A stretch of 64,000 bases of DNA from Patescibacteria group bacterium (lineage in GTDB: Bacteria; Patescibacteriota; Patescibacteriia; JBDRGY01). A program made the translations under genes and the position numbers. The notes beneath the pieces were generated by a model, which worked only from the letters and a program-made list of their open reading frames with translations, was not told the origin of the DNA and searched no databases. The stretch lies in assembly GCA_043817315.1 (NCBI GenBank), contig JBDRGY010000013.1, positions 8,663 through 72,662 on the forward strand. Direction: 5' to 3'. Each line of letters opens with the position of its first letter. Within the stretch, counting starts at the first letter, position 1. Shown here one piece after another: positions 708 through 36,211 of this stretch.

Positions 708-745
708 GGGGGCTCAACCTTCGGGAAGAGCCCTTCTTCATTTAC
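708..745. terminator. intrinsic terminator hairpin (gggctc..gagccc) with T-run, between convergent genes
   Basis: GGGCTCaaccttcgggaaGAGCCC is followed by ttcttcattt, and it sits between the + unit and the minus-strand glycosylase gene. Confidence 0.5.
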
Positions 746-1070
746 GATAACAACCACACGGTCTAGCTTTCAATATTTTTCTTTGTTTTGGTATCGAATC
801 AACAAAAATGGATTGATCCGGTTTCCCTTTAGCATACTTTTTATCCAGTGGAGACTGGTGATTGTATCCCCTATTTTCCATTTCCTTAACCAACAGCTGA
901 TGTCTTTTATACAAAGCGGCTAATTTTCCTTCCCAGCGTTTGGTTTCCGGATGATGACGATAGCCTTTTTTGTTGTGAACTAAAATCGACCACAAGGCAT
1001 GCAACTCCCGATGTTCACCGAGCAGATGCTGGCGGCAGAGTTTTGTTACCGGAACGTCCCAGATTCTCAT
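738..1070 (-). CDS. pyrimidine dimer DNA glycosylase (T4 endonuclease V / DenV family, Pyr_excise)
   Basis: MRIWDVPVTKLCRQHLLGEHRELHALW...GYRHHPETKRW aligns with T4 endoV [28 protein letters not shown] and with the bacterial Pyr_excise motif GYRxHPxL. Confidence 0.65.
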   Translation of the reverse strand: MRIWDVPVTKLCRQHLLGEHRELHALWSILVHNKKGYRHHPETKRWEGKLAALYKRHQLLVKEMENRGYNHQSPLDKKYAKGKPDQSIFVDSIPKQRKILKARPCGCYRK

Positions 1071-1072
1071 AT

Positions 1073-2263
1073 TTATCGGGGAATTGGTTTTAGTACATTT
1101 CCCTGCATGTAGCGAGGTGGTTCATCAGATTCTTTGGTTTTAGAGTCAGCCAAGTTTTCAGGAATAGCAATATTTAATCCGGTCAAGATATTTTCGAACT
1201 GATGAAATACTTCATTCCTACCCAGACTGCAACCGCCATATGACTCAAACTTATAAATCGTGGCAAACTCACCATTGTCTAATTTCTTATCATATAGTTT
1301 TAAATATATGACAAAATCACTATCAACTTTGCTATATAATATGATTGAGTCTCTTTGTTGACGATATACATTTCCTTCAATAATTGTTGCTAAAATATTG
1401 GGTGACACCTCTGTTAATTCTCGCTCGGATAACTCTGAACAATATCCTGAGTCTTGGCAACTTCCCTTTGCCACTAAACTTTCTCTATTCTTGTTATATT
1501 CTTCAAGTGTCATAAATAACTGTTTATTATCGAAATACTCGGCAACAACCTCAATATTATTTGGCAGTGATTTAACAAATTCCCGTAAGTCAATCCTTTG
1601 GTCAAGCGGCAAATCATATATTCCTCCCCAATCTTTATACCCCACACAATCACCTTTTTCGTCAGGCTTCCAGGTGGGATTTTCTGGTTCATTTTCAAAA
1701 GTCAAATTCGGACAGTTAATGTCAGCCCAGCGCTGATATTTATCCATACAATAACGTAGTGTATAGTCCGCCTCGGTCCAGCAAATAACTTCATTAGGAT
1801 CATCATACAAGCTATTTGAATAGCCTTGCCAACAACAGTAGTCATCCTCGTTCTGCCATATCTTCTGGATTATTAAGCCAATTTGATTTCCATCATTTCT
1901 CCTCAATATTAATCTGGCTTGATCATAATAATTATCTTCATTCTCAAAATCAATAATTTTAGCACCTTGATCACCGTCTGCCAAAAGATTAATACGAATT
2001 ATTGGGTTTTCTGCATACTCGCCAATCTCTTCACTATGATAATAAATATCAGCCAACTCCAGTGTAGTATTCGTTCCTTTTATGCAAATTTTATCTCCCT
2101 CTACCATATTTACTTCATTCTCGTATTCAACAACCGTATAACCCTCACATTTTTCCTCATCCTGACCTGTTTTATTCAATTCAAAGTAATAATAAATTAC
2201 TCCCAACAGAAGAACTACTGCTGCCATTATAACAACGGTTATCTTAAACGAATAATTTTTCAT
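1073..2263 (-). CDS. secreted or membrane-anchored cysteine-rich hypothetical protein
   Basis: The likely true start is the internal Met (MKNYSFKITVVIMAAVVLLLGVIYYYF signal anchor) at 2263, because the upstream gene stops at 2281. The mature part has many Cys and Trp residues and acidic stretches. Confidence 0.55.
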   Translation of the reverse strand: MKNYSFKITVVIMAAVVLLLGVIYYYFELNKTGQDEEKCEGYTVVEYENEVNMVEGDKICIKGTNTTLELADIYYHSEEIGEYAENPIIRINLLADGDQGAKIIDFENEDNYYDQARLILRRNDGNQIGLIIQKIWQNEDDYCCWQGYSNSLYDDPNEVICWTEADYTLRYCMDKYQRWADINCPNLTFENEPENPTWKPDEKGDCVGYKDWGGIYDLPLDQRIDLREFVKSLPNNIEVVAEYFDNKQLFMTLEEYNKNRESLVAKGSCQDSGYCSELSERELTEVSPNILATIIEGNVYRQQRDSIILYSKVDSDFVIYLKLYDKKLDNGEFATIYKFESYGGCSLGRNEVFHQFENILTGLNIAIPENLADSKTKESDEPPRYMQGNVLKPIPR

Positions 2264-2280
2264 ACTTGTTGCATTAAAAA

Positions 2281-3072
2281 TTAGACCGGCCTTAAAGTTC
2301 CAGCAAACACCTGCCAGGCCAAAAGTGATTTGGCCACTAAACTTAGAATGATATAAGCCCGCTCGCCGTACAGATAATCGCTCCACTTGCCCACTTTTTT
2401 ATACTGCAGAACCATGTTGATCGCAAAGACATTGAAGAACAGAAAAATGGAAAAGAAAATCCAGTAGACAAAACTGGGTGCTTTAGCGTCACCGCTGCCG
2501 GCATTAAACAGATGAATAGCAACAGCCACCCAGGGAATGGCTCCGGCCAGACAACCGAACCAGAAAGAATGCCATTTGGTTTTCTGGGTTGTTTGGTTGT
2601 GCATTTCCATGATCAAGCCGAACAGAATCATTATGCCGTTTAAGGAGAATAACGCCATTAACGCCACCAAGTCATAAATTCCCACTAACATGCAGATTAT
2701 CAAAATCATCAGAGAGGAACTGAAGAAATATTCGATCCAGCGGGCATAGTTGGCACCCTTGGCTAAGTTCCTGTTATACCAGTCATTTATTTTGGGCAGG
2801 GTCAGCAGTAAATGAGCTAAAGCTGAGAGCAATAAAAATCCGGAAACTAGTGGTCCAACCGGCAATTCCCATAGTTTGTTTAAAACCGGTTCCAGCATTT
2901 TGGTAACCCTATTCAATTCGACAAAGGAGGTATAAACCGGCAGCTTGAAATCGTTGGCCAGCAGCAACATGGCGATTCCCTGCCCCAGATGGAGAAAGAA
3001 CATGATTAGGTTAAACCGGCGCAGTTTTTTAAATTTTGTTTGATCGGGTAACTGTGTTGTGGTTTGGTCCAT
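2281..3072 (-). CDS. heliorhodopsin (7-TM retinal protein)
   Basis: Strong similarity to heliorhodopsin 48C12 across the protein: WFGCLAGAIPWVAVAIHLF, SIFLFFNVFAINMVLQYKKVGKWSDYLYGERAYIILSLVAKSLLAWQVFAGTL. The Schiff-base Lys is conserved in SLVAK, and the protein is 263 aa. Confidence 0.85.
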   Translation of the reverse strand: MDQTTTQLPDQTKFKKLRRFNLIMFFLHLGQGIAMLLLANDFKLPVYTSFVELNRVTKMLEPVLNKLWELPVGPLVSGFLLLSALAHLLLTLPKINDWYNRNLAKGANYARWIEYFFSSSLMILIICMLVGIYDLVALMALFSLNGIMILFGLIMEMHNQTTQKTKWHSFWFGCLAGAIPWVAVAIHLFNAGSGDAKAPSFVYWIFFSIFLFFNVFAINMVLQYKKVGKWSDYLYGERAYIILSLVAKSLLAWQVFAGTLRPV

Positions 3073-3097
3073 ATTTTTGTTGAATAATAATAAGCAA

Positions 3098-3586
3098 TTA
3101 CATTATAGCAGAAATTAGCTCTTTGATAACTTCCTTCTCATTTTTCCCTTCAGTATCAACAACTTGGCCTGCTTCAAACGTAGTGTTAATCCGGTACATC
3201 GCTTCAATACTGATCCGATTCATTGCATTCTTTTTCCTGGCCAGGTTCCTCTGCCAACAAGTTTCCAAAGACGCTTTCAAAGTGAAAATGAAAGGTTTGC
3301 CCGACAATTCTTTAACTAACTGATCGATTTGTTCTTGGTAATAAAAATTGCCATCAAAAACGACCGGCTTCCCCTGCTCCAAGTATTCAATAACTTTGGG
3401 CTTGATTATGGTTTGGACTTTTAAGAAATTGCCGACTGGAATATCTCCGTCTTTAATTTCTAAATTGGTATCTCGTAAAACTTGGTCAATATTAAAATGA
3501 ACTCCGTTTAACAGTTTGGCAACGGCTTGGGCAATAGTTGTTTTGCCTACTCCGGCTGGGCCGCGGATGATGATAAAATTAGTCAT
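3098..3586 (-). CDS. P-loop NTPase / small-molecule kinase-like protein
   Basis: Walker A GPAGVGKTT near the N-terminus and 162 aa length fit the AAA_33 / nucleotide-kinase-like fold. Confidence 0.5.
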   Translation of the reverse strand: MTNFIIIRGPAGVGKTTIAQAVAKLLNGVHFNIDQVLRDTNLEIKDGDIPVGNFLKVQTIIKPKVIEYLEQGKPVVFDGNFYYQEQIDQLVKELSGKPFIFTLKASLETCWQRNLARKKNAMNRISIEAMYRINTTFEAGQVVDTEGKNEKEVIKELISAIM

Positions 3587-3619
3587 GGGTATAGTATAAC
3601 AGAAACGCAGATGATTTTC

Positions 3620-3979
3620 TTATTCAGATAATAGCCGACAAATCCTCTCAATCACTCCTTCCATATTTTTGTAAACATCCAGGTTATTTACCCGAAGGAA
3701 TCTAATACCGAATGACTCAATGAATTGCTGGCGTTCTTTATCATATATTCTGGCCTGATCAGAAAGATGAGTTGGGCCGTCAATTTCAATGGCCAATCTG
3801 GCTTTAGGACAATAGAAATCGACCACATATTTGCTAATACTATACTGACGACGGAATTTAAAACCTTCTAGTTGCTTATTTCTTAAATGCAACCATAGAA
3901 TATGCTCAGCCGGAGGCATTTGCCGACGTAAATACCGTCTACTGCCTTTGGTTCGTTTTTTATTATATAGTCTTGTCAT
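3620..3979 (-). CDS. DUF559 (very-short-patch-repair-like endonuclease domain) protein
   Basis: RRQMPPAEHILWLHLRNKQLEGFKFRRQYSISKYVVDFYCPKARLAIEIDGPTH matches the DUF559 signature. Confidence 0.7.
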   Translation of the reverse strand: MTRLYNKKRTKGSRRYLRRQMPPAEHILWLHLRNKQLEGFKFRRQYSISKYVVDFYCPKARLAIEIDGPTHLSDQARIYDKERQQFIESFGIRFLRVNNLDVYKNMEGVIERICRLLSE

Positions 3980-3999
3980 AATTGTTGACCTCCCCTCTG

Positions 4000-4175
4000 A
4001 ACCAACTCTGCAAAAACACCTGGCTCATTCTCCCCTCCTTACTAAGGAGGGGTAAAGCGTTTATTGGTTTTTCACAGACGTGGGTTTCGTGGGAGCGGTT
4101 CATTGATAAACTGATGAGCCTTCACTATCGTCGAGGAGGGGAAAACGATTATTAGTTCTTGTAAAACTTGGGTGA
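4000..4175 (+). repeat. intergenic repeat element, copy 1 (SD/anti-SD hairpin cccctcctt-acta-aaggagggg); second copy at 56590-56735
   Basis: gacctcccctct...aacacct...attctcccctccttactaaggaggggtaaagcg...tggttttt...gtggg.gcgg recurs in the same order and orientation at 56596-56715. Confidence 0.5.
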
Positions 4176-4288
4176 CAAGGAGGTGGTTGGTTAATTATCT
4201 AACTAACAAAAACCTCCCCGTCTGTCTTTTCTGGGAAGGTTTTAATGTCTTTAATTTATTCTACCTGGGAAGAATTGTCAACTATCTC

Positions 4289-4783
4289 CTAGAAATCATA
4301 CCAATCAATCGGATCTATTCTGGTCACTGTTTCGTTCCTGTCTACAGTGACTTTAACCGCTTTATGGCCGGTACAGCTAATATCCATCCCACAAACTACA
4401 AACTGGGAATAGTAAGCTTGATAGTCATCCAGAGCTTCCCCGGTCGTGCTATCCGGATCAATCAGATAAGAGAAAATATGATAATCTCCCGGCGGGACGG
4501 AAATCTCATAACCGAGATTATAAGTGTAATCGTCACCTTCGAGCATTTCATAAGTACAATACTGATCATAGCCATCGGTGGTCTCGGCACAAATTCCCAA
4601 AGCCGGTATTTCTTCCGAAGGATAACCTAAAGATCCGCCGATTTTGCCCCAGTGGGCTTCGGAATCAATTTCCTCAACCTTGGTTATTTCATTGGGGACG
4701 TGAGCTAACCATAAGCCCAAAATAATAATAGCCACAATTATGACTATCAGCAGGATGATGATAATTTTTAAAGGTTTTTTCAT
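4289..4783 (-). CDS. hypothetical membrane-anchored protein
   Basis: Has an N-terminal TM helix (IIIILLIVIIVAIIILGLWLA) and an acidic, aromatic-rich ectodomain. Confidence 0.45.
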   Translation of the reverse strand: MKKPLKIIIILLIVIIVAIIILGLWLAHVPNEITKVEEIDSEAHWGKIGGSLGYPSEEIPALGICAETTDGYDQYCTYEMLEGDDYTYNLGYEISVPPGDYHIFSYLIDPDSTTGEALDDYQAYYSQFVVCGMDISCTGHKAVKVTVDRNETVTRIDPIDWYDF

Positions 4784-4793
4784 GATATTGTGG

Positions 4794-6131
4794 TTAGCTA
4801 ATTCTTAGGTAAGACCAGCCCTTAATAAATTCCCGGACGGTGGTCACTTCTTTTTTATACGGATCCAGCACTTTGGCATCCAGCAATCTGGGGTCGACGT
4901 TTTTCAGCTGATTGGGGGGAATGCCCGGATTACTTTTGGAGCCGCCGGATAATTTCTTCAGTGCCTTAACCATGTCATCCCATTCCAGATTCCCAATTCC
5001 CGGCGGGCGGATCATGATAGAGGTATGATTTAAGAGATTACTGTAGGATTCTCCGGTAATCGATAATAGCCCTTCATGCTTCTGGCCAGGCTTAGCCGGG
5101 TCCTTGTTTATATCCAGCTTGTTGAGTAAATCTCGTTCCAGCCATTGCATAGAATCGCCGCAGCGACCGAACTGGTAAGTATCCACAAAATCAGCACTGT
5201 TGCCGTTAAAACCGTGATCAAAAATGGCTACCAGGTGCTGCCACCAGTATTGTGGGTGCAACTTACTGGTTTCGGTTTTAATGTTTTTGATTTGATTCAA
5301 AAACCACTCTTCAATCTTGTCCGGATCCAGGATTTTATCAATCTCTTCTTGAGTGTATTTATAACCTAACCTGATTCGGATTTTTTCCGTCTCTTCTTTA
5401 CGATTTACTTTCACTTTTTTGGTCAAATTACCGTTTTGGTCAAAGGTATAGGTAGTGTCATTATCACCATCTACCGAAATAGTATTGGTTAGACGATTAA
5501 GGTCATCTTTAATATCAATCTGGCACTTACAGGCGGGGAAAGTTCCAGAAAAAGAAGTTAAGACGGCATTTTTGTGGCCTCTTAAATATTTATTACAGTG
5601 ACTCTCACAGGTCGGGCCAGTAGCAGTTCCACCAGTGTTCAGGGAAATGTTGGTGCCAGCCTGGGAAATATTTACATTCTGATTAGAATTGGTGTTAGTG
5701 TTTTGGTTGGCGTTGGTATTAGTAGCTTGATTGGTATTTGGATTGGTGCTGACGCTGGTGTTGGTATTATTGCTGGAATTGGTATTGGTGGTTGTTCCTG
5801 TATCCCCCGGACAATCTTCATCCAAACCGACGCAAGCATAAAGACAACCTGAACAACCTTCGTTGTCTGATCCTTTATAACACTCCTTGTTGGGATCAGT
5901 TGGATCTTCATTGATACTGCCGGAAGAACCGCAGATACAATGTCCGGTGTAGGAATAATGGGCATCGCCAATATCGTTACAATTGGTCTGTTTACAGCCT
6001 ACTCCGCTCATTCGGTCCCAGGTATAACCCGGTCCACAATCTGCCTCGGTTATGGCCTGAACGGATACAGCCGAAATCAATAATAAAAAGCCTATTACTA
6101 AGGCAAACCAAAAATATTTTTTCATTCCCAT
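4794..6131 (-). CDS. secreted Cys-rich protein with N/T-rich low-complexity linker
   Basis: Signal peptide MGMKKYFWFALVIGFLLLISAVSVQA, then an N-terminal Cys-rich region, a TNTN/NQNT low-complexity tract, and a C-terminal globular domain. Confidence 0.5.
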   Translation of the reverse strand: MGMKKYFWFALVIGFLLLISAVSVQAITEADCGPGYTWDRMSGVGCKQTNCNDIGDAHYSYTGHCICGSSGSINEDPTDPNKECYKGSDNEGCSGCLYACVGLDEDCPGDTGTTTNTNSSNNTNTSVSTNPNTNQATNTNANQNTNTNSNQNVNISQAGTNISLNTGGTATGPTCESHCNKYLRGHKNAVLTSFSGTFPACKCQIDIKDDLNRLTNTISVDGDNDTTYTFDQNGNLTKKVKVNRKEETEKIRIRLGYKYTQEEIDKILDPDKIEEWFLNQIKNIKTETSKLHPQYWWQHLVAIFDHGFNGNSADFVDTYQFGRCGDSMQWLERDLLNKLDINKDPAKPGQKHEGLLSITGESYSNLLNHTSIMIRPPGIGNLEWDDMVKALKKLSGGSKSNPGIPPNQLKNVDPRLLDAKVLDPYKKEVTTVREFIKGWSYLRIS

Positions 6132-6225
6132 ATTACTATTAATTATTGTACTATTATATTTTAGCAGAAAATTGGGGGAAACAAAAACCTTCCTGTTTAT
6201 TGCTGGGGAAGGTTTTTGCTTTGTA

Positions 6226-6954
6226 CTATTGTAAATAACTATCCAGCGATTCCTCTGTCCCGGTGGCAGTTACTGTTTTGGGAAGAACTCCTTTTAAATA
6301 AGCTTCATTAGCATGGTATTCAAGTACTTCCAGACTGAATCCCGGCACTTTGGCTAATTCTTCATTAATTATTTCTTGGGCTTTGGCTGAAATTTCTTCG
6401 TAATACTTACTAGGGACCGTCAGGCGGCCAACTTTGGCCTGGAGTAAATTTACGGACACTGTTTTTGCCGAAGTTTTAACCACATCCACATCCACGTAGG
6501 CCGGAGCGTTGATAAAAGGAACAACAAAGGCGGAAATCTCCATTCCCCCTTCCCGGAGTTTAACCTGAATATCCCTGACGTGTTTGCCTTCCCCATGGTA
6601 TTTCTGAATGAAAGCAGTCATTTCAGCAGAAGAATGTCGGTCATCAACCGGCACGGTACCGGCGTACTCCTTGGCCTGGGTCCAATAAAATGTTCCGGGC
6701 TCGGCTTCAATGGTCATCGGGTTGTCCGCTTCAGCCTGCTTTAGGTCTTCTACAGTTGGATGCACCCCCAGATCAATCGGTTTGTTGGTGCCAAAGATAG
6801 CGGATACAACGGGAATCTGAAAAATTCCAGTGTAACCCAGGGCAGCAAGCGGCAAAACAATAAATACAAAAACTAGGATTATTACTGTCCACAGCAGTTT
6901 GTGAGATTTCTTTTTTGGCTTTTGTTCTTCTGGTTGTTTAGCTTGGTCTTCCAT
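6226..6954 (-). CDS. hypothetical membrane-anchored protein
   Basis: Has an N-terminal basic segment followed by a TM helix (LLWTVIILVFVFIVLPLAALGYTGIF). Confidence 0.45.
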   Translation of the reverse strand: MEDQAKQPEEQKPKKKSHKLLWTVIILVFVFIVLPLAALGYTGIFQIPVVSAIFGTNKPIDLGVHPTVEDLKQAEADNPMTIEAEPGTFYWTQAKEYAGTVPVDDRHSSAEMTAFIQKYHGEGKHVRDIQVKLREGGMEISAFVVPFINAPAYVDVDVVKTSAKTVSVNLLQAKVGRLTVPSKYYEEISAKAQEIINEELAKVPGFSLEVLEYHANEAYLKGVLPKTVTATGTEESLDSYLQ

Positions 6955-7013
6955 TGTTTTAGAGATTAATAATTGAACAATATTATTTTAGCAGAAAAAT
7001 GGGGAAAAACAAA

Positions 7014-8246
7014 CTAGATACTATCACCCAAACAATAACCGGTAGTCCAACACATTTGCAGATTATAACCGCCAGTGGGGCCGTCTAAGTCCAAGATCTC
7101 TCCGGCCAGATAAAGATTATCAATAATCTTGGATTGCATATTCTTAGGATCAACTTCTTTGAGATCCACTCCCCCGCTGGTAACGATAGCCCGATTGAAG
7201 CCAGCCAAGTTTTTAACCTGCAAAGTAAAATCTTTGATCAAATGGACTAATTTCTTTCTTTCGGCTTGGCTAATGGCATTAACCTTCTTATCCGGATCGA
7301 TCTGAGACAGTTTGATCATGACCGGAATCAACTTTTTAGGTAAGAGAGCGGCTAAACTGTTTCTGAATAATTTATTATTTAACAGGGCAAAGTCTCTTTG
7401 CAGGCGTTTATCCAAGGCGGGGAAATCCAGGGCCGGTTTGAAATCAAGGTGCAACTCTACTTTTCCTTTTTTCAGAGACTGGCCGACTGCTTTACTCATA
7501 TCAATAGCAATGGGACCACTTAAGCCATTATCGGTAAACAACGCTTCACCAAAAGAAGATAAGATCTTCTTGCCTTTTTGATAGGGACTGATAGTAACAT
7601 TTTTAAGGCTTAATCCTTCCAGTTCCTTAATCCACTTTTCCCGCAAGATAATGGGAACAATGGCCGGGACTAGTTCTGTAATTTTATGCCCCATTTTTTT
7701 AAGCCAGGCATAAGCGTCACCAGTCGAACCGGTCACTGGGTGCCCTTGGCCTCCGGTACAGATAGCATATTTGTCTGCTAAATACTTTTGTCCATCGCTG
7801 AGGACGATTTGGGTAATTTTATTATTGCATCTTTCTATCGATTTAACGGTAGCCTTGGTCTGGATGGTTACCTTATTTTCTTTTAAATAATTTGTTAAAG
7901 CTCCAATCACATCGGCTGACTGATTGCTCTGGGGAAAAACCCGATTGCCTCGCTCAATTTTGGTGGGAACTCCTCGTTGCTTGAGGAAATCCAGCATCTC
8001 TTGAACGCCAAATTTATTTAAGCCGGAAAAAAGAAAACGGCCGTTGCGTCCATATTTGGCAATTAACTTCCTGGTATCAAATTCAGCGTTGGTAATATTA
8101 CATCGTCCTTTGCCGGTAACTCCTAGTTTAGTTCCCAACTTAGCGTTTTTCTCCAACAATAATACGCGGGCGCCTTTGGCCCCGGCTCTGCCGGCAGCCA
8201 TCATCCCGGCCGGTCCTCCCCCGATTACTATTAAATCATAGATCAT
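7014..8246 (-). CDS. FAD-dependent oxidoreductase, HI0933/BaiN-like flavoprotein family
   Basis: N-terminal dinucleotide fold DLIVIGGGPAGMMAAGRAG, ...GKGRCNITN..., and C-terminal LAGEILDLDGPTGGYNLQ are typical of the HI0933 family. Confidence 0.7.
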   Translation of the reverse strand: MIYDLIVIGGGPAGMMAAGRAGAKGARVLLLEKNAKLGTKLGVTGKGRCNITNAEFDTRKLIAKYGRNGRFLFSGLNKFGVQEMLDFLKQRGVPTKIERGNRVFPQSNQSADVIGALTNYLKENKVTIQTKATVKSIERCNNKITQIVLSDGQKYLADKYAICTGGQGHPVTGSTGDAYAWLKKMGHKITELVPAIVPIILREKWIKELEGLSLKNVTISPYQKGKKILSSFGEALFTDNGLSGPIAIDMSKAVGQSLKKGKVELHLDFKPALDFPALDKRLQRDFALLNNKLFRNSLAALLPKKLIPVMIKLSQIDPDKKVNAISQAERKKLVHLIKDFTLQVKNLAGFNRAIVTSGGVDLKEVDPKNMQSKIIDNLYLAGEILDLDGPTGGYNLQMCWTTGYCLGDSI

Positions 8247-8333
8247 CTTAGTTTCTCCATATTCCCATTTATTTAGGCATTAGTCAAAATAAAAAAATCC
8301 TTGCTAAAAAACTTTAGCCAGGATTTGATAATG

Positions 8334-9851
8334 TTATAAAATCCCGAATACTTTGCGAAAATGAAACCCATAAATTGCAAAACCAATTACTGAAGAGAAG
8401 AGCTGGGGGTGCCTGAATAAAGACCAAAAGAACAGTTTCCAGAAGCCTCCCCTGGACCTATCTTTGATACCCAGAAACCAGATGGATTTAAATATGGCAC
8501 CGGAGAAACCATAATGTAAACGGATATAACGAAAATGAAAATGGGATGACCTCTCTGGTAATTTATTTTTTTCCTTCAAGAATCTCTTAACCCGTTTGTA
8601 ATAAGGCTTGGGAGAGTAAATCCCGCTGATAATTTTTTTATATCCCTGTACCAGGTTTTCATATTTGATTTTAGTAACAAAGTTGGTAGAAAAATCGGTG
8701 TTGTCACCCGTCATATCTTTCAATATCCTGCCTTCTTTGGTAAGACGCTGATAGAGTCTGGTACCCCGAGGGGCATTCAATAATCCGACCATGGCGGTTA
8801 CAATTCCACTTTTCTGGATGAAGTCAATTTGTCTTTGGAATATTGACGAATCATCATTGTCAAATCCCACGATGAATCCTCCGGTCACCTGCAAACCAAA
8901 CTGCTGGATTTTTTGGACTGAGGCGATCAAGTCACGATTCCTGTTTTGAATCTTGCCGCATTCTGCTAAGCTGGCCTCGTTGGGAGTTTCAATACCAACA
9001 AACACCCTGTTAAATCTGGCACGGGCCATCAGACGCATCAGCTCTTCATCATCAGCCAGATTAATTGAGGCTTCGGTGGTAAGAACAAAGGGATTTTTTC
9101 TTTTGGTCATCCAATCAATCATGGCCGGTAAGACATCCTTTTTTAGCTTGGGTTTATTCCCAATGAAATTATCATCAACCATAAATATTCCGCCTCTCCA
9201 GCCTCTTGAATACAGACTATTTAATTCAGTTATCATTTGATCTTTACTCTTGGTCCGTACTCCGCGTCCAAAAAGGGCAGTAATATTACAGAATTCACAG
9301 TTAAAAGGGCAGCCGCGGGAATATTGGAGATTCATCGATAAATATTTTCTCATCTTGATAAGTTCCCAGAGGGGAACCGGCGTTAATCCCAGGTCCGGAT
9401 ATTCCTTGGAGCCATAAATACGTTGAGGACAGCCGTTTTTCAAATCCTCCAAAAAGGGCGGCAGGGTAATCTCCGCTTCATTGAGTATTAGATGATCCAC
9501 ATAGGAAAAATCTTGATACTCGGTTGTAAAGAGGGGGCCACCAGCCACAACCTTGATACCCATTTTCTGACACTTCCTGATTACCTCTTTGGCTGAAGCT
9601 TTTTGAATAGACATGGCACTAATAAAAACCAGATCAGCCCCCATCAGGTCTTTATCCTTTAACTTGGAAACTTTCATATCAATCAGCTTTTTCTCCCACT
9701 CCTTAGGTAGCATGGCGGCTACTGTTAATAAGCCTAAAGGTGGATGAGAGGCCTTTTTGGAGATAAATTTTAAGGCATGCTTAAAACTCCAGAAGGTATC
9801 GGGATACTTCGGGTAAACAAGGACAACTTTGGTATTTGTTTTTCCCCTCAT
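8334..9851 (-). CDS. B12-binding domain radical SAM protein (with DUF4070-like C-terminus)
   Basis: CPFNCEFC is a CxxxCxxC radical SAM motif. There is an N-terminal B12-binding-like domain (VVLVYPKY...LGLLTVAAML). Confidence 0.75.
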   Translation of the reverse strand: MRGKTNTKVVLVYPKYPDTFWSFKHALKFISKKASHPPLGLLTVAAMLPKEWEKKLIDMKVSKLKDKDLMGADLVFISAMSIQKASAKEVIRKCQKMGIKVVAGGPLFTTEYQDFSYVDHLILNEAEITLPPFLEDLKNGCPQRIYGSKEYPDLGLTPVPLWELIKMRKYLSMNLQYSRGCPFNCEFCNITALFGRGVRTKSKDQMITELNSLYSRGWRGGIFMVDDNFIGNKPKLKKDVLPAMIDWMTKRKNPFVLTTEASINLADDEELMRLMARARFNRVFVGIETPNEASLAECGKIQNRNRDLIASVQKIQQFGLQVTGGFIVGFDNDDSSIFQRQIDFIQKSGIVTAMVGLLNAPRGTRLYQRLTKEGRILKDMTGDNTDFSTNFVTKIKYENLVQGYKKIISGIYSPKPYYKRVKRFLKEKNKLPERSSHFHFRYIRLHYGFSGAIFKSIWFLGIKDRSRGGFWKLFFWSLFRHPQLFSSVIGFAIYGFHFRKVFGIL

Positions 9852-9935
9852 ATATGAATTGCTCCGCCATAATGGCGGGATTCCTGAAGATTTTGTTTAA
9901 TTAACGGCTAATTCTATTGTAGCAGATAACAGAAA

Positions 9936-9960
9936 TAATTAAAAATCCCCAAGTATGGGG
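9936..9960 (-). terminator. intrinsic terminator downstream of the tRNA-Trp locus
   Basis: Minus-strand CCCCATACTTGGGG is followed by ATTTTTAATTATTT. Confidence 0.5.
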
Positions 9961-9994
9961 TGTATCCCAGCGAGAGACGCCACCGTTTCGGGTG

Positions 9995-10080
9995 GCAGGG
10001 TTGGAGGGAATCGAACCCCCGTATCAGGTTTTGGACCCCGTCGCTCGCGAGTGACGGGGTGGAGACCCACAACATTTACA
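9995..10080 (-). pseudogene. tRNA-Trp-derived degenerate partial copy (element A)
   Basis: Minus strand ...GGTCTCCACCCCGTCACTCGCGAGCGACGGGGTCCAAAACCTGATACGGGGGTTCGATTCCCTCCAACCCTGCCA carries tRNA-Trp-like anticodon-arm (TCCAAAACC), T-arm (GGGGGTTCGATTCCC) and CCCTGCCA 3' end. No acceptor-stem pairing or cloverleaf is possible, and the D region is replaced by a GC hairpin. Confidence 0.4.
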
Positions 10081-10089
10081 GAAAACTGA

Positions 10090-10165
10090 TGGCAGGGGCG
10101 CTAGGACTTGAACCCAGCCTTGAGGTTTTGGAGACCCCCGTGCTAGCCACTAACACTACGCCCCC
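10090..10165 (-). tRNA. tRNA-Trp (anticodon CCA), CCA 3' end encoded
   Basis: Minus strand GGGGCGTAGTGTTAGTGGCTAGCACGGGGGTCTCCAAAACCTCAAGGCTGGGTTCAAGTCCTAGCGCCCCTGCCA folds as a cloverleaf with anticodon loop CUCCAAA. Confidence 0.8.
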
Positions 10166-10169
10166 ATCA

Positions 10170-10442
10170 TCAGGTTTCTGTTTTTTTAATATTCAAGCTC
10201 TTTGCTATTCGTTTCTTAAGTGCCATATAAACCGATCCGCTTTTCTTTATTCTCTTTTCCCTTATTTTGGAATCTTCTCTGTTTCTATAGGATTCATAGT
10301 AAACTAACTGAACAGGTAGCTTATTCTTAGTTGTAAATACCTTCCCTTTATTATGATCTTTTAGTCTTTGTTTTAAATGATCCGTTCTACCAATATACAG
10401 TTTGCCGTCATTAGCGCTTTTTAATAGATACACATAATACAT
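10170..10442 (-). CDS. GIY-YIG nuclease family protein (UPF0213/YhbQ-like, single URI domain)
   Basis: MYYVYLLKSANDGKLYIGRTDHLKQRLKDHNKG...LVYYESY is a GIY-YIG motif. The protein is 90 aa with a basic tail. Confidence 0.7.
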   Translation of the reverse strand: MYYVYLLKSANDGKLYIGRTDHLKQRLKDHNKGKVFTTKNKLPVQLVYYESYRNREDSKIREKRIKKSGSVYMALKKRIAKSLNIKKTET

Positions 10443-10446
10443 TCAT

Positions 10447-10665
10447 GTGGGATTATTAATTAATCCCCGTCGTTCTCGGTTTTGGACCACGTCAGTCGCG
10501 GAACCCCGTCATCCGGGGATGACAGGGACTGACGTAGTGGAGACCTGCGTTCTACATTGCCAGCCAGAGGCTGGTCCGCCCCGGGCGGAAACTATCCCTA
10601 GGTCGCCTGCAGCGACCGGGATCCCGGCCCCGCGGACAGCGGGGACCAGGGACACCCCCAAAATA
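10447..10665 (-). repeat. GC-rich structured element B, degenerate tRNA-Trp-like copy related to element A
   Basis: About 65 percent GC with many nested hairpins. It shares the blocks AATGT.G, GGTCTCCAC, GACGGGGT, GGTCCAAAACC and ACGRGGG, in the same order, with element A and with the tRNA-Trp anticodon arm. Confidence 0.4.
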
Positions 10666-11754
10666 TTATCGGCTTTTCTTTTTACCTTTAATAAATTCTT
10701 CTGTCAACTGGTGGGCTTCTTCATCGGTATATTGAATAGCCGGTGATTTCATAAAGTAGGCAGAAGGACCGAATAAAGTGCCGGATATCTTTCTGTCCAG
10801 GGCCAATTTTATACAACGAATGGCATCAATAACCACCCCGGCTGAATTGGGTGAATCTTCTACCGACAAACGGCATTCTACATTCATAGGCACATCACCA
10901 AAATGTCGGCTCTCTATTCTTAAGTAACAAATCTTATTATCTTTCTGCCAAGGCACGTAATCGGAAGGTCCGACGTGGATATTCTCATCTTTAATGGACA
11001 ATCCCCTTCTTTCTATCTGGGATTTAACTGCATTGGTTTTTGAAATCTTCTTTGAAGATAGCCTGGCTCTTTCTAACATGTTTAGAAAATCCGTGTTGCC
11101 ACCAATATTCAATTGATAAGTACGGTCAATTGGCATCCCTCTGTCTAAAAATAAATTAGTCAAAGTACGGTGTAGAATTGTGGCTCCCACTTGAGACTTA
11201 ATATCATCCCCTATAATCGGCAGTTTCCTTTGCTTAAACCGACCTTGCCAGTATTTCTCTCGGGCGATAAATACCGGAATACAGTTTACAAAACCACAAC
11301 CGGCATCTAAGACCTGCTCTACATACCACTTAGTGGCATGTTCACTGCCGACTGGCAGATAATTAATGACAACATCGGTTTTGGTTTGCTTTAAAATTTT
11401 GACGATATCATCAGTAGGACCAGGTGCTTTTTTGATTATAACGTACTTGCCTAAACCATCATGAGTCATTCCTCGATGAACTTTAACGCCCAGCTTGGGA
11501 ACTGGGGAGAATTTCTTGGTGTTATTGGGCTTTACCCAAATGGCTTGGCTTAAATCTTTGCCAACTTTGTTGGCGTTGATGTCAAAAGCAGCAGTAAATT
11601 CAATATCCCGGATATGATAACCTCCCAGAGTGACATGCATTAAACCCGGTACCGTATCAGCAGCCTTGGCCTTACGATAGTATTGAACACCTTGAATTAA
11701 AGAAGAAGCACAATTACCCACACCAATTATACCTACTCGAATTTTCTTCTTCAT
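10666..11754 (-). CDS. myo-inositol-1-phosphate (inositol-3-phosphate) synthase, archaeal-type
   Basis: 362 aa. [19 protein letters not shown]-binding start and overall similarity to short-form MIPS. Confidence 0.75.
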
Positions 11755-11773
11755 ATATCCTCCTGATATATTA

Positions 11774-11929
11774 TTATTTGGTCTCTTTATGGGGAGTATG
11801 CTTCTGGCACCATTTACAGAATTTTTTCAATTCTAAACGATTGCGCAGAGTTTTCTTATTTTTCTTGGAAAAATAATTAACCCTTTTGCATTCGGTGCAT
11901 TCCATTTTGATCAGATTGTCCTGTGACAT
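11774..11929 (-). CDS. rpmG: 50S ribosomal protein L33
   Basis: [51 protein letters not shown] has the L33 Cys motifs and RLELKKF/HKE signature. The ORF-track N-terminal extension is rejected. Confidence 0.75.
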
Positions 11930-11984
11930 AGAAATATGTTTAATATTTTTTGGGTAACTCTGGAGCCAAGGAAGCCCCGGATCG

Positions 11985-12075
11985 CAGTCCGGGGGAACCC
12001 CCAACCTGCTGTTTATGCCGCCTTAGGCGGCACCCCGCCAGAGGCGGTAGCAAACATCGCCATAATTACTTACGA
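11985..12075 (-). pseudogene. partial degenerate copy of the tRNA-Thr(UGU) 3' half
   Basis: Minus strand ...CATAAACAGCAGGTTGGGGGTTC-CCCCGGACTGCGATCCGGGG-CTTCCTTGGCT. It has 20 nt identical to the tRNA-Thr anticodon-stem/variable/T-stem region, and the T-loop is replaced by a GC hairpin. Confidence 0.4.
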
Positions 12076-12085
12076 GGTGGCTCAA

Positions 12086-12157
12086 AGCCGAGGAAGGGAA
12101 TCGAACCCCCAACCTGCTGTTTACAAAACAGCTGCTCTACCATTGAGCTACCTCGGC
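12086..12157 (-). tRNA. tRNA-Thr (anticodon UGU)
   Basis: Minus strand GCCGAGGTAGCTCAATGGTAGAGCAGCTGTTTTGTAAACAGCAGGTTGGGGGTTCGATTCCCTTCCTCGGCT has a cloverleaf with anticodon loop UUUGUAA. Confidence 0.85.
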
Positions 12158-12174
12158 AAAACTTGGGGTGGTTG

Positions 12175-12260
12175 TGGTGGGCGGAGTAGGATTCGAACCT
12201 ACGAAGGCAAAAGCCATCTGATTTACAGTCAGACCCAGTTGACCACTTTGGTATCCGCCC
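12175..12260 (-). tRNA. tRNA-Tyr (anticodon GUA), long variable arm, CCA encoded
   Basis: Minus strand GGGCGGATACCAAAGTGGTCAACTGGGTCTGACTGTAAATCAGATGGCTTTTGCCTTCGTAGGTTCGAATCCTACTCCGCCCACCA. Confidence 0.85.
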
Positions 12261-12419
12261 ATATGTATTTTAAATAACCCTATTCATTTTTTTATGAATC
12301 TGATTTATCCCATAGCCCGCTAGACGCAGTAGCGTCTGAGGAGTGAGGGGCACTCATGCGGAGGTTGAAGCGGAAGAAATTTGATTACTGGAACGCAAGC
12401 CGAAGCATGAGATGAGCTG

Positions 12420-12485
12420 AGCCCAGAAGCGGACTCGAACCGCTGACCTACTCCTTACCATGGAGTTGCCTGCCCGCCAAGCGCC
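12420..12485 (-). pseudogene. partial degenerate copy of tRNA-Thr(GGU)
   Basis: gacctactccttaccatggagttgc is identical to the anticodon arm of the adjacent tRNA-Thr(GGU), but the D and T arms are altered and the acceptor cannot pair. Confidence 0.35.
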
Positions 12486-12488
12486 TGG

Positions 12489-12560
12489 AGCCGACGGTCG
12501 GACTTGAACCGACGACCTACTCCTTACCATGGAGTTGCTCTACCACTGAGCTACGTCGGC
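12489..12560 (-). tRNA. tRNA-Thr (anticodon GGU)
   Basis: Minus strand GCCGACGTAGCTCAGTGGTAGAGCAACTCCATGGTAAGGAGTAGGTCGTCGGTTCAAGTCCGACCGTCGGCT. Confidence 0.85.
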
Positions 12561-12638
12561 ACTAGGCGACTGGCAGGCGGGCTCTACCTCAGCCAGGGGC
12601 TGACCCGCCTTTGGCGGGAGCTGAGGTATCTGGGCGTA

Positions 12639-13454
12639 TTATTTTTTGATTTTTAAATCCTTTTCCAATACTTTCACCCTTTCCTCAAATTCAGTTATCT
12701 TCTGGTTGTCGGGATTGACTTCTTTCAATTTATCAAGGCACTCTAAGGCTACCACTTTATCTTTAGTTTCCAAACAGGTGTCTAACATGCAGTCCAATAT
12801 TTTTGGATTGTTCGGTTCAATCTCCAGGGCCTTGGCAAAATTCTTGATGGCCAGTCGTGTATTGTCCTGTCTCAAGGCCAGGAGGCCAAGGTCATGATAC
12901 ACCAAGGCATTGTTGGGATCAATTCGCAGCAGATGTGAAAAAGTCTCGTGAGCAAAGTCAAACTCTTTCATTTCCATATACAGTTCTCCCAGGCGTTCAA
13001 AAGCTTCCAGGTTGTCACTGTCCAGTGATATGATTTCAATATACTTCTTTTCAGCCTCTTTTACCTTCTCTGCTTTCTCTAAATCGTCCGCCTCTTGTAG
13101 TAATTGGCTTACTTTTGTTTTGACCTTGGCTCGATCAGTGCTCTTTTGGGGTGCTTGAATTTTCTGAGTATAATTTTTTTCTAGGGCGATCACCTTACGG
13201 TAGGAACGACGGAATGACTCCCGTATCTTCTGGGTTACTGGTACTGCATATTTAACAACTTGTTTGAAAATATTATCAAGTTTTCTGGTCAACCTTTTTT
13301 CCATTAAGTCTTTTTTAACTTCCTTCTGCAGCTGTTTGGGTACGGCTTGAGTGTTTATTGCAGACAAGGCAGGAAACTTACGCACCACAATAATCACAAT
13401 AATCCCCATCCCCATGATAATGACGCCTAACAATATGTAGTCTAATAGAGTCAT
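12639..13454 (-). CDS. TPR-repeat protein with N-terminal TM anchor
   Basis: TM segment MTLLDYILLGVIIMGMGIIVIIVV, and a C-terminal half with TPR-like repeats (AHETFSHLLRIDPNNALVYHDLGLLAL..AIKNFAKALEIEPNNPKIL). Confidence 0.55.
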   Translation of the reverse strand: MTLLDYILLGVIIMGMGIIVIIVVRKFPALSAINTQAVPKQLQKEVKKDLMEKRLTRKLDNIFKQVVKYAVPVTQKIRESFRRSYRKVIALEKNYTQKIQAPQKSTDRAKVKTKVSQLLQEADDLEKAEKVKEAEKKYIEIISLDSDNLEAFERLGELYMEMKEFDFAHETFSHLLRIDPNNALVYHDLGLLALRQDNTRLAIKNFAKALEIEPNNPKILDCMLDTCLETKDKVVALECLDKLKEVNPDNQKITEFEERVKVLEKDLKIKK

Positions 13455-14281
13455 TGTTTTTTAGATTGAAGTTTTAGACACTGTTCACTACCTGGAATTT
13501 CTACTTCGATATAGGAATTATCCTCAATCCTGACGTCAACAGAATGTTTCAAAATATTCCAAGCTACTACCTCTCCTTTGCCTTGTTTAGTCTTAATAAT
13601 ACTGCCCAACTGCGGCAAATCCTTGCTACAGGTTTTGTATAGTTCTTCTTCGTAGGCCAGGCAACACATTAAACGACCACAAGATCCGGAAATTCTTTCA
13701 CTGCCCCGGTGGGCTACTTGCTGGGCCCGGGCCAAATCAGAAGAAACATTACCCAAATTATCCAAGAACTTACGGCAACACATAGGACGACCGCAGACTC
13801 CAATATCCCCTAGCCTTTTAGTTTCGTCTCGAATTCCAATCTGTTGCAAACGGATTGATTTTTGAAAGATATGCGAAAGATCTTTTACCAAATTACGAAA
13901 GTCCACACGAGAATCAGCCGTAAAGGTAAATACTATTCTGCCGCCATCGAAAGAAAATTCGCAATCTACAAGATTCATCGGCAAATTATGCTTCTTGATC
14001 AGGTGACGGCACTTATCCAGAACCTCTTCTTTCTGTTCGTTGTGCTGCTCCAGCTTGGCCAAATCTTCAGTTGTTACTTTACGAACCACCGAATTGACAG
14101 GCTCTGGTTGGTCATCACCGTCTTTCTTGTCTGTCTCAACGGCTAGCTGGGTTACCTCCCCCAGTTCCAAACCGGAGTCAGCTTTTATTATTACCCGATC
14201 ACCCGTTTTCAAATCAAACCGGCCACCGTCATATAACTGCGGCTGATCCCAAAAGTGCATTCTGACAAAAGCTTTTGACAT
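13451..14281 (-). CDS. PSP1 C-terminal domain protein (RicT/YaaT family)
   Basis: CGRPMCCRKF and CGRLMCCLAYEEELY are the Cys motifs characteristic of YaaT/RicT PSP1 proteins. Confidence 0.65.
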   Translation of the reverse strand: MSKAFVRMHFWDQPQLYDGGRFDLKTGDRVIIKADSGLELGEVTQLAVETDKKDGDDQPEPVNSVVRKVTTEDLAKLEQHNEQKEEVLDKCRHLIKKHNLPMNLVDCEFSFDGGRIVFTFTADSRVDFRNLVKDLSHIFQKSIRLQQIGIRDETKRLGDIGVCGRPMCCRKFLDNLGNVSSDLARAQQVAHRGSERISGSCGRLMCCLAYEEELYKTCSKDLPQLGSIIKTKQGKGEVVAWNILKHSVDVRIEDNSYIEVEIPGSEQCLKLQSKKQ

Positions 14282-14284
14282 TTC

Positions 14285-14860
14285 CTATAAAGCAAAGCGA
14301 ATAAACTTTTTTATTTGGATATTTTCACCCAACTTGGTAATTGCCTCGTTAACCAATTCTTCAATCACTTTTTTGTCGTCCTTGATAAATTTCTGCTTGG
14401 TCAAACAAACCTCTTCATAATACTTATGCAATTTACCCTCCAAGATTTTTTTCATTACCTTGTCAGGTTTCTTTTCTTTTTTAATTTGCACTTTAAATAT
14501 CTCTTTTTCTTTGGCAATTTCTTTTTCAGGAACATCTTCAGGGGCTAAATAGGAAGGATTAGTGGCCACTACTTGCATAGCCAGATCATGAGCCAATTCA
14601 ATAAACTGTTCATTCCTGGCTACGAAATCGGTTTCACAGCTCAGTTCAACCATGGCTCCCACCTTACGATTAGCATGAATATATGCCTCGACTACACCCT
14701 CGGATGTTTGACGACCTGCCTTTTTGTCGACTAACTTCTGTCCCTGCTTTCTCAATATCTCTATGGCTTTATCCAAATCATCTGTTTGATCCAGCGCCGA
14801 TTTACAATCCAGGATGGAGGCACCCGTTATTTCTCTCAATTTTATTATCTTATCTTTCAT
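14285..14860 (-). CDS. tsf: elongation factor Ts (short form)
   Basis: LREITGASILDCKSALDQTDDLDKAIEILRKQG is a UBA-like N-terminus. The gene is immediately downstream of rpsB. Confidence 0.8.
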   Translation of the reverse strand: MKDKIIKLREITGASILDCKSALDQTDDLDKAIEILRKQGQKLVDKKAGRQTSEGVVEAYIHANRKVGAMVELSCETDFVARNEQFIELAHDLAMQVVATNPSYLAPEDVPEKEIAKEKEIFKVQIKKEKKPDKVMKKILEGKLHKYYEEVCLTKQKFIKDDKKVIEELVNEAITKLGENIQIKKFIRFAL

Positions 14861-14875
14861 TGATTTATTCCTTTT

Positions 14876-15721
14876 TTAAGATTTTAAGGCCTGGCTGGCA
14901 GCAACTTCTTTTTCTTGTTCCTCAATGTTTTCAATATTCTTTTTTACATCTTCTTTCACCTTTACTTCATCCTCTTTGGTCTTGGGTTTAGCTTCTGGCT
15001 TGTCATCAGCCTCTTTCTTTGGTTCTGGCTTAATCATTTTCTCTGATTGACCCTCTTTGACAGCCTCGGCAATTAATCCACTAAACAATTCTATTGATTT
15101 GGTGGCATCATCATTACCGGGAATAGGATAAGTTACTTTTCCCGGATCAACATTGGTATCCACCATGGCCACAACCGGAATACCTTTTTTGATCGCTTCT
15201 CTGACAGCTGTATTCTCTTCTTTGATATCAATGACAAACATGGCCTCGGGCAGCTTGTTCATGTTTTCCATTCCGCCGACCAATTTTTCCAACTTATCCA
15301 TTTCACGTTGGTAGACCGATCTCTCTTTCTTTGAGTATTTCTTGATTTCACCGGACCCGAATTTGTTGCGTAAATCTTTCAACCGGGCCACTAACTTAGA
15401 GACGTTGACATAATTGGTAAAAGTACCACCCAGCCATTTTTCTGTTATGAAAGGCATGCCACATTCTTTGGCATACTTGGCTATGATATCCTTGGCCTGC
15501 CTCTTGGTGCCCAGGAATAAAACAAGGCCGCCATTTTGTGCTGTCTTTTTAACAAACTCAAGAGCTTCTTCCAGCTTGGCCGCCGTAATCTCCAAATTAA
15601 TAATGTGGACGCCATTACGAGCCGTAAAAATATACGGCTTCATTTTGGGGTGCCATTTAGCGGTTTGGTGGCCAAAATGAACCCCAGATTTCAACATTTC
15701 CAACAACGAAATTTCTTTCAT
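14876..15721 (-). CDS. rpsB: 30S ribosomal protein S2
   Basis: MKEISLLEMLKSGVHFGHQTAKWHPKMKPYIF...VDTNVDPGKVTYPIPGNDDA has canonical S2 motifs. Confidence 0.9.
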   Translation of the reverse strand: MKEISLLEMLKSGVHFGHQTAKWHPKMKPYIFTARNGVHIINLEITAAKLEEALEFVKKTAQNGGLVLFLGTKRQAKDIIAKYAKECGMPFITEKWLGGTFTNYVNVSKLVARLKDLRNKFGSGEIKKYSKKERSVYQREMDKLEKLVGGMENMNKLPEAMFVIDIKEENTAVREAIKKGIPVVAMVDTNVDPGKVTYPIPGNDDATKSIELFSGLIAEAVKEGQSEKMIKPEPKKEADDKPEAKPKTKEDEVKVKEDVKKNIENIEEQEKEVAASQALKS

Positions 15722-20204: not shown

Positions 20205-20345
20205 CACTCTCATTAATCACGCGTCCCCGTCCGCAAGGACTCAGGGGCGCTTTTTTTATATTAAAAAAGGTCCTGCACCTACGCTTGCGCGCTTGGTGCA
20301 GGACCTGTCGTTCGAACTCACTCCGTCCCAGAGGACGAGAGGGAG

Positions 20346-21302: not shown

Positions 21303-21354
21303 GGGGATAGTTCTCCTTTCCTGACAGGCGAAGATTATCCGATTGGATCATCCT

Positions 21355-21675
21355 CTAGTTGTCACCGATCCGGCGATCCAGAGCTTCTTTCTGCTGCTCG
21401 ATGCCAGTTCGGTCCTGCCCCCTTCGCTCCGACAGATTGACGCTGAGCGAGTTGAACAGGTTGAGCCCCAGCACCAGGGCGATGATCATGATCACCGTCC
21501 AGCGGATGCTGTGAATCCACTTCCTGCTCGCAATCTCGCTACGAGGCATGTTACGCAGCACCAGTCTCGTGACGTACAGAACGATGATGACAGCGATGAT
21601 AGCCGCCACGAACCAGCCTTTGTACATGGGCCAGACTGCGACCCAGCGCTCGGCCAGACTCATCGAGTTAAGCAT
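21355..21675 (-). CDS. small 2-TM membrane protein (possible NfeD-like partner of the SPFH lipoprotein)
   Basis: AGGAGG lies 6 nt before the internal Met (MLNSMSLAERW...). The gene is directly upstream of and co-oriented with the SPFH-like gene. Confidence 0.35.
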   Translation of the reverse strand: MLNSMSLAERWVAVWPMYKGWFVAAIIAVIIVLYVTRLVLRNMPRSEIASRKWIHSIRWTVIMIIALVLGLNLFNSLSVNLSERRGQDRTGIEQQKEALDRRIGDN

Positions 21676-21943: not shown

Positions 21944-21973
21944 GGCGCCGTTTCGCTTCCGCGAAACGGCGCC
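21944..21973. terminator. strong bidirectional intrinsic terminator
   Basis: GGCGCCGTTTCGC-TTCC-GCGAAACGGCGCC is a perfect 13-bp stem flanked by A/T runs. Confidence 0.5.
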
Positions 21974-36205: not shown

Positions 36206-36211
36206 CAGACC

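Follow-up and report, generated by a model that had tools for sequence, protein, structure and literature searches.

In the 64,000-nucleotide stretch of a Patescibacteria genome analysed here (hereafter the window; contig JBDRGY010000013.1 of assembly GCA_043817315.1, positions 8,663 to 72,662), a gene for a heliorhodopsin (HeR) stands in a string of five co-directional genes that ends in a short relative of DenV, the T4 endonuclease V (endoV). We propose that this string is a lineage-specific mosaic whose sole recurrent element is the pairing of HeR with the T4-endoV-like glycosylase, a cassette that would serve against sunlight damage, and we put the probability of this reading at roughly 60%. 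Its support lies less in the tight packing of the five genes than in the way that two of them, and only two, are found side by side again in other genomes, in positions that are non-random and in lineages that are separate.

All five genes lie on the minus strand between positions 738 and 3979, as a first-pass annotation of the sequence had set them out. From 5' to 3' they encode a DUF559 endonuclease-like protein (119 aa, 3620..3979; PF04480, 1.8e-32), a small P-loop kinase-like protein (162 aa, 3098..3586; AAA_18, 3.2e-11, and AAA_33, 5.5e-11), HeR (263 aa, 2281..3072; PF18761, 4.9e-99, and NF038020, 6.8e-101), an orphan Cys-rich membrane-anchored protein (396 aa, 1073..2263) and a short-form Pyr_excise protein of the T4-endonuclease-V fold (110 aa, 738..1070; PF03013, 6.5e-29), and the gaps between them measure 33, 25, 17 and 2 nt. 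The identities proposed at first pass agree with Pfam and NCBIfam for four of the genes; the Cys-rich protein has no match in either. Individually the genes are already known, since all five are present in the NCBI annotation of the source metagenome-assembled genome (proteins MFH1598313-17, HeR being MFH1598315.1), where the Prokaryotic Genome Annotation Pipeline (PGAP) names them, from the DenV end, 'pyrimidine dimer DNA glycosylase/endonuclease V', 'hypothetical protein', 'heliorhodopsin HeR', 'AAA family ATPase' and 'DUF559 domain-containing protein'. Only the association of HeR with DenV could be new.

The recurrence of that association was surveyed from both of its ends. The HeR-anchored set comprised 160 loci, 80 from species-representative genomes and 80 from metagenomes, with flanks of +/-6-10 kb per locus (1.60 Mb in total), and every open reading frame (ORF) in them was searched with a hidden Markov model built from 120 DenV homologues. 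Pyr_excise genes were found in five of the 160 loci (~3%), all five within about 600 nt of HeR, and nowhere else in the 1.60 Mb of HeR-flanking DNA. In three loci DenV is the gene immediately after HeR (+1), across gaps of 83 nt (L004), 3 nt (L087) and 21 nt (L128); in L124 it is convergent with HeR and overlaps it by 4 nt; and in L030 a member of a divergent subfamily (28% identical; Pfam 1.2e-21) lies two genes upstream (-2). If the loci are taken to carry the gene, all five copies would come to lie within 1 kb of HeR with a probability of about 2e-4 in a pooled positional test, and five copies within 1 kb set against a generous upper-bound base rate of one copy per Mb give a p of about 1e-5.

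Look-ups from the DenV side, anchored on the closest homologues of the window DenV that were located on long contigs, placed HeR within one to three genes of DenV in three of six informative cases (P0121, P0131 and P0135, corresponding to loci L081, L172 and L179); the other three (P0122, P0127 and P0132) had no HeR nearby, and P0129 lay at a contig edge. Shared synteny and 97% identical HeRs in L172 and L179 reduce the three matches to two lineages. Taken together, the DenV-linked HeRs (L081, L087, L004, L128, L124, L030 and L172/L179) form seven lineages with mutual identities of at most 73%. A neighbourhood check had been named beforehand as the test on which the first-pass proposal of an HeR-DenV pairing should stand or fall, and its outcome is that the adjacency is not unique to this genome. 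In a neighbour-joining tree of 162 HeRs, built on Kimura distances and without support values, DenV-linked members occupy at least four separate positions: the window, L081, L087 and L004 fall in a clade of the candidate phyla radiation (CPR), where members lacking DenV are mixed in among them; L030 belongs to a Dojkabacteria branch and L124 to an archaeal-type clade, and L128 has a branch to itself. The flanking genes differ in every DenV-linked locus.

The assignment of HeR, together with its conserved Schiff-base lysine, was correct at first pass. The match to PF18761 runs through the entire profile (1-242 of 242) at 331 bits, where the cutoff is 26.7; that to NF038020 reaches 336.9 bits, where the cutoff is 100; and comparison with the PDB gives full-length matches to 6is6 (8e-76) and 48C12 (6e-65). 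The SLVAK motif (S244-LVA-K248, an SxxxK motif in transmembrane helix 7 with the Schiff-base lysine K248), the counterion E114 in helix 3, H28 and H87 are all present, are invariant among 31 relatives and line up with their counterparts in TaHeR 6is6. Five Lys or Arg residues among the first 22, ahead of the first transmembrane helix, fit the positive-inside rule and would be compatible with the inverted topology of HeRs, in which the N-terminus is cytoplasmic. HeRs are plentiful in Patescibacteria, where they have been described before (PMC9166423). No carotenoid or retinal biosynthesis gene is visible among the 37 window ORFs (64 kb) scanned with Pfam; at first pass, too, none for retinal had been seen.

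The 110-aa protein is a remoter relative of its namesake. It matches PF03013 over profile positions 1-79 of 81 with 100.6 bits against a cutoff of 23; a phmmer search of the PDB with the protein itself missed T4 endoV (PDB 2end, 1vas), and a family profile search returned 2end as its top match with an E-value of 0.043, so that sequence similarity is marginal. The profile alignment pairs the window's 'HLLGEHREL' with T4 'HLMAEYREL', which matches E22 with the catalytic E23 and R21 with its neighbour R22, and E22 is invariant in 31 homologues. An AlphaFold2 model (pLDDT 92.4, pTM 0.85) finds 2end, 1enj and 1enk by Foldseek at probabilities of 0.98-1.00 (TMq 0.65-0.69), the next match having a probability of 0.08. 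Profile and model together support membership of the all-alpha T4 endoV fold with its active site, and activity as a DNA glycosylase and apurinic/apyrimidinic (AP) lyase on cyclobutane pyrimidine dimers (CPDs) is predicted from the same evidence. In the short subfamily to which the protein belongs M1-R2 is invariant, and the register of M1-R2-I3 with T4 (M)TRI puts M1 at the position of Thr2, which in T4 endoV supplies the nucleophilic alpha-amine once Met has been removed. The two proteins also differ: T4 endoV has 138 aa and a processed N-terminal Thr where the window protein has Met-Arg, and it does not have the C12, H15, C105 and C107, including a C-terminal CxC, that are invariant in the short subfamily. 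These four residues may constitute a metal-binding site.

The short subfamily (~109 aa) is very widespread, with 60-70% identity across Omnitrophota, Acidobacteriota, Thermoplasmatota, Micrarchaeia, methanogens and CPR bacteria. It is also common on viral contigs (87 matches in IMG/VR, up to 64% identical to the window's protein), and is thus phage-borne too, like T4 denV. Among the viral contigs searched there is no sign of the HeR-DenV pair travelling on phages: 80 short-form DenV loci (L184-L263) have neither HeR nor DUF378 nearby, a single distant HeR being found.

The company that HeR keeps was also examined without prior assumptions, by clustering all genes within four positions of it. 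The recurrent neighbours were ABC transporters (11 loci), response regulators (8) and an unknown 216-aa protein restricted to an archaeal-type clade (7), with Pyr_excise among the top families (6-7 loci) and the most frequent of all at +1, followed by photolyase, UvdE, MsrA, MsrB, cupin and PNPOx-like genes (5 each) and desulfoferrodoxin (4). Three non-homologous enzymes for ultraviolet (UV) photoproducts, that is, each recur beside HeR, together with genes against oxidative damage. DUF378 (PF04070), a small gene with two transmembrane segments, is a direct neighbour of HeR only where Pyr_excise is present as well (L081, 265-471; L004, 9614-9901; L172, 4682-4903; L179, 3752-3985; counted here as four lineages), upstream of HeR in two lineages and between HeR and DenV in the other two; it was not found in the other ~165 HeR loci, in the 64-kb window or in the 80 viral DenV loci.

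Several further neighbours were seen in single loci or clades. A ~215-aa unannotated secreted protein with no Pfam match is always at -1 of HeR in the archaeal-type HeR clade (L057, L130, L140, L120, L141, L157, L163), divergently oriented in six of the seven and often accompanied by UvdE and PNPOx-like genes. Other neighbours are concerned with damage to DNA or nucleotides: a gene of the SRAP family of abasic-site sensors lies directly downstream of HeR in L168 (5392-6060), MazG and two NUDIX genes flank HeR in L170 (5575-8294), and a Fpg/Nei glycosylase gene (3-536) lies near the Pyr_excise-DUF2177-HeR string of L030.

That HeRs adjoin UV-repair genes is already published. In Thermoprofundales the genes around HeR include PhrB, UvsE and carotenoid genes (PMC9585477), and Bulzu et al. 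listed photolyase and UvdE beside Znf-HeRs, with glutaredoxin and peroxidase genes beside HeR elsewhere (PMC8612252). Our survey recovered the same pattern independently (UvdE and photolyase), and differs in that the published clusters feature photolyase and UvdE, not Pyr_excise, whereas the window, which belongs to a CPR bacterium, has neither carotenoid genes nor a retinal pathway. The strict criterion of Bulzu et al., under 10 bp, would catch only HeR-DenV cases of the L087 type. The closest functional parallel is the operon of Trichococcus flocculiformis, in which TfHeR binds and stimulates the neighbouring photolyase TfPHR (Shim et al. 2022, PMC9769723). There too an HeR stands beside a CPD-removing enzyme, and the pairing was proposed to be functional from its operon context; the partner there, however, is a flavin photolyase and here a predicted light-independent glycosylase/AP lyase of the T4 endoV fold, and the window pair is split by an unrelated gene. 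A precedent for an HeR regulating an adjacently encoded soluble enzyme also comes from Actinobacteria IMCC26103, where HeR is reported to regulate a neighbouring glutamine synthetase (Cho et al. 2022, PMC9529153), an enzyme of unrelated class and physiological context (nitrogen metabolism). In the literature searched we found no report of a pyrimidine-dimer glycosylase or of DUF378 beside HeR. The first-pass claim of a new partner beyond photolyase therefore needs amending, in that it omitted the UvdE/UvsE neighbours already on record; what is left of it is that HeR seems to have, in a glycosylase that needs no light, a third UV-repair partner not reported before, and the presence of DUF378 with HeR and DenV in four lineages likewise looks unreported.

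Around this pair the locus is fluid. HeR flanks differ in each of the relatives at 94.5%, 88%, 75% and 73% HeR identity, and the five-gene order is not conserved in any of them. In L081, where HeR and DenV are 88% and 90% identical to the window's, the order is helix-turn-helix gene, DUF378, HeR, DenV, with DenV right after HeR. In L087 it is a homologue of w6226, then HeR, then DenV; w6226 is an unannotated membrane protein of the window (6226..6954, minus strand, no Pfam match) that serves as a synteny anchor, matching L087 at 5020-5877 (phmmer 7.2e-50). We take w6226-HeR-DenV, as seen in L087, for the likely older order. In the simplest history, w4794, w4289, DUF559 and the kinase were then acquired on the upstream side of HeR in the window lineage, where a further gain, the Cys-rich gene, came to separate HeR from DenV. 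In L180 the HeR (200-988; JGI 3300014656, Ga0180007_10023622) keeps entirely different company, namely a PQ-loop/SemiSWEET-like gene, DUF2196 and a GAF histidine kinase; this points either to very rapid turnover of the locus or to movement of the HeR gene itself from genome to genome.

The three other genes of the string behave as passengers. Searches by tblastn and phmmer with DUF559, the kinase and the Cys-rich protein recovered no meaningful homologue near HeR or DenV in ~175 other loci, and for that reason we have dropped them as members of a module; an AAA_33 gene 2 kb from DenV in L177 was treated as coincidence, being a P-loop match only (E = 0.001). DUF559, which opens the string and alone has GGAGG upstream, matches the 'endonuclease-like protein' 3hrl in the PDB (3.2e-17), and the best PDB matches of the kinase are PSTK (1.7e-4) and a putative adenylate kinase. 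The Cys-rich ORF extends mechanically to a GTG at 2386 and would then run into HeR; translation from the ATG at 2263 yields the 396-aa product of the NCBI call, with one N-terminal hydrophobic anchor and 11 Cys. Its relatives number only three (34%, 28% and 27% identity) among 1.84 billion cluster representatives, and it is missing from L081, L087, L004 and L128, where DenV directly succeeds HeR; as far as these sequences tell, it is a lineage-specific insertion between the two. It is also one of three membrane-anchored or secreted Cys-rich proteins with no family around HeR (1073-2263, 4289-4783 and 4794-6131), typical fast-evolving CPR surface proteins; searches with w4289 and w4794 against all fetched loci gave no meaningful homologues either. 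GC content at third codon positions (GC3) is 0.56 in HeR, 0.42 in the kinase, 0.40 in DenV, 0.33 in DUF559 and 0.31 in the Cys-rich gene, against 0.40-0.48 in housekeeping genes, a heterogeneity that fits a mosaic origin.

On the reading that we favour, HeR would act as a retinal photosensor that reports light, and would not be expected to pump; because the window holds no biosynthesis gene, its retinal would have to be supplied from outside. The glycosylase would start light-independent base-excision repair of CPDs, using its N-terminal alpha-amine (M1) together with Glu22, and AP endonucleases, such as those found near DenV elsewhere (AP_endonuc_2 in L004, Exo_endo_phos in L084), would complete it. 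The two genes, probably co-transcribed, would have been kept or brought together by co-selection, both mattering only in illuminated habitats. DUF559, the kinase and the Cys-rich gene would be later insertions into the older w6226-HeR-DenV arrangement and would stand outside the mechanism.

Several observations weigh against this reading. What stands of the light/UV-damage pairing proposed at first pass is its recurrence in at least four HeR clades and its non-random position (p about 2e-4); it is nonetheless a minority trait, present in ~3% of sampled HeR loci, and is missing beside the closest HeR relative (L180, 94.5% identity), in which HeR is followed by the PQ-loop gene, DUF2196 and the histidine kinase with no DenV in the 3.9 kb beyond HeR. 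DenV is likewise absent beside HeRs at 75% identity (L167, an unannotated gene downstream) and 73% identity (L168, the SRAP gene downstream), and in the window itself an unrelated 1.2-kb gene stands between the two partners. The number of independent pairing events is uncertain, as several linked loci fall in one broad CPR clade. On the side of the enzyme, the DenV-like protein reaches only 36.6 bits against the cutoff of 121 for TIGR02328, itself a 'hypothetical equivalog', and we know of no biochemically characterised member of the short 109-aa subfamily. Consensus scans for promoters and terminators, finally, gave matches not above shuffled expectation and are uninformative on transcription.

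Those matches nevertheless mark out a candidate architecture. A 309-nt intergenic region 5' of DUF559 (3980..4288, minus strand), the only long gap, contains a promoter-like match (TTGACA-17-TAAATT at 4281-4253) and likely marks the 5' boundary of the string. A second match (TTATCA-16-TATAAT with TG; 3102..3129, minus strand), by consensus only, falls within the 3'-terminal part of the kinase gene, 30 nt ahead of the start of HeR, from where HeR, the Cys-rich gene and DenV could be driven by it as an internal promoter. A 6-bp GC hairpin (GGGCUC...GAGCCC; 710..733, minus strand), with no U-run, begins 5 nt past the DenV stop codon and may mark where the transcript ends. Downstream of DenV, a GC-rich stretch (440-740) was considered as a structured RNA and dropped, its 301-nt region having a fold z-score of only -2.15 and no credible Rfam match.

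These boundaries and the gaps of 2-33 nt speak for the full form of the first-pass model, with all five genes as one functional light/UV-response operon in which DUF559 and the kinase would process DNA ends after the glycosylase. The endonuclease-like fold of DUF559 lends itself to such a role, and AAA_33-type kinases include polynucleotide kinases. The module dissolves on comparison, however: the five-gene 'operon' is specific to this genome, its three extra genes being found near HeR or DenV in none of the ~175 other loci, their GC3 spans 0.31-0.56 with that of the pair, the base-excision partners that do occur near DenV are AP endonucleases, and a 5' kinase is not needed after beta-elimination. 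Gene-dense co-directional runs are, moreover, the norm in this genome, and co-direction carries little weight here because the five genes sit within a 15-kb run (738-15,721) that is co-directional throughout on the minus strand. We regard the five-gene model as highly improbable. The opposite extreme, that HeR and the glycosylase are dispensable accessory genes which gather in the same hypervariable island with no functional interplay beyond that, draws on the same fluidity. HeR neighbours change even at 94.5% HeR identity, genes for IS200/IS605-type Y1 transposases lie near HeR (L081, with a faint match in L168), GC3 is heterogeneous across the five genes, and an orphan gene has been inserted between HeR and DenV. 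Mere hitch-hiking is harder to square with the positions of the five Pyr_excise genes, which adjoin HeR or lie within two genes of it instead of being scattered over the flanks, with the return of the adjacency in separate clades, among them the archaeal-type HeR clade and the divergent DenV subfamily of L030, or with recurrent neighbours so strongly biased to UV and oxidative damage, across three non-homologous repair types; we consider it unlikely.

The remaining alternative is a more specific version of the sunlight-damage cassette, in which HeR would bind the glycosylase through its cytoplasmic loops and light would alter the activity of the enzyme or free it from the membrane, with DUF378 as a third membrane component. 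Direct gating is attractive because the glycosylase needs no light of its own; it has published precedents in HeRs that regulate adjacently encoded enzymes (PMC9769723; PMC9529153), and would suit both the tight gaps of some loci (3 nt in L087, 21 nt in L128) and the distribution of DUF378, which joins HeR and DenV in four lineages and was seen at none of the other HeR loci. Against it, the pairing is dispensable in close relatives, the inserted gene splits the pair in the window, DUF378 is absent from all 64 kb, and the 'spectral broadening' rationale published for photolyase, that HeR broadens its action spectrum, does not transfer to an enzyme that needs no light. Light-gated control is a possibility that we put forward tentatively and rate as rather unlikely. 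Its strongest form, in which DUF378, HeR and short Pyr_excise make up a conserved three-part module whose light sensor directly gates a 'dark' CPD repair enzyme, is doubtful.

The wider window holds a few further features. An HI0933-like flavoprotein of the aminoacetone-oxidase family is encoded at 7014-8246, 4 kb upstream of HeR; clear homologues adjoin HeR in L006 and L118, and in L170 only a distant flavin adenine dinucleotide (FAD) oxidoreductase (E about 1e-4) occupies that position. A 49-nt direct repeat, 82% identical, at 6138-6186 and 6965-7013, directly upstream of the w4794 and w6226 starts, looks like a shared promoter or 5'-leader element. GC-rich islands at 20000-22000 and 36000-38000 (0.54-0.55 against 0.43 for the window) carry ORFs with no Pfam match (20346-21302, 21355-21762, 22014-22691 and 36922-37533) and may be foreign DNA. 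ARAGORN calls overlapping tRNA-Thr(GGT) genes at 12419-12490 and 12486-12560, of which Rfam backs only 12489-12560.

The function of heliorhodopsins is still debated, and the best experimental leads are the enzymes encoded beside them, photolyase and glutamine synthetase. Pairing with a light-independent glycosylase would, if recurrent, separate two ideas, namely that HeR extends the action spectrum of a photoenzyme and that HeR is a light switch for the enzymes beside it; both proteins are small and easy to express, so that the choice between the two is directly testable. Should the three-part module prove real, HeR would in general regulate the soluble enzymes encoded beside it, allosterically and under the control of light, instead of serving photolyase as an antenna, and the two proteins of 263 and 110 aa would offer a minimal pair for testing HeR signalling. 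For the gene-dense genomes of the CPR, the locus is a reminder that close packing does not in itself argue for a functional operon: of the five genes here, three are passengers. For the HeR family, a third non-homologous class of UV-repair enzyme among its neighbours ties HeR more firmly to sunlight damage in general, and this extends to CPR bacteria unable to make retinal.

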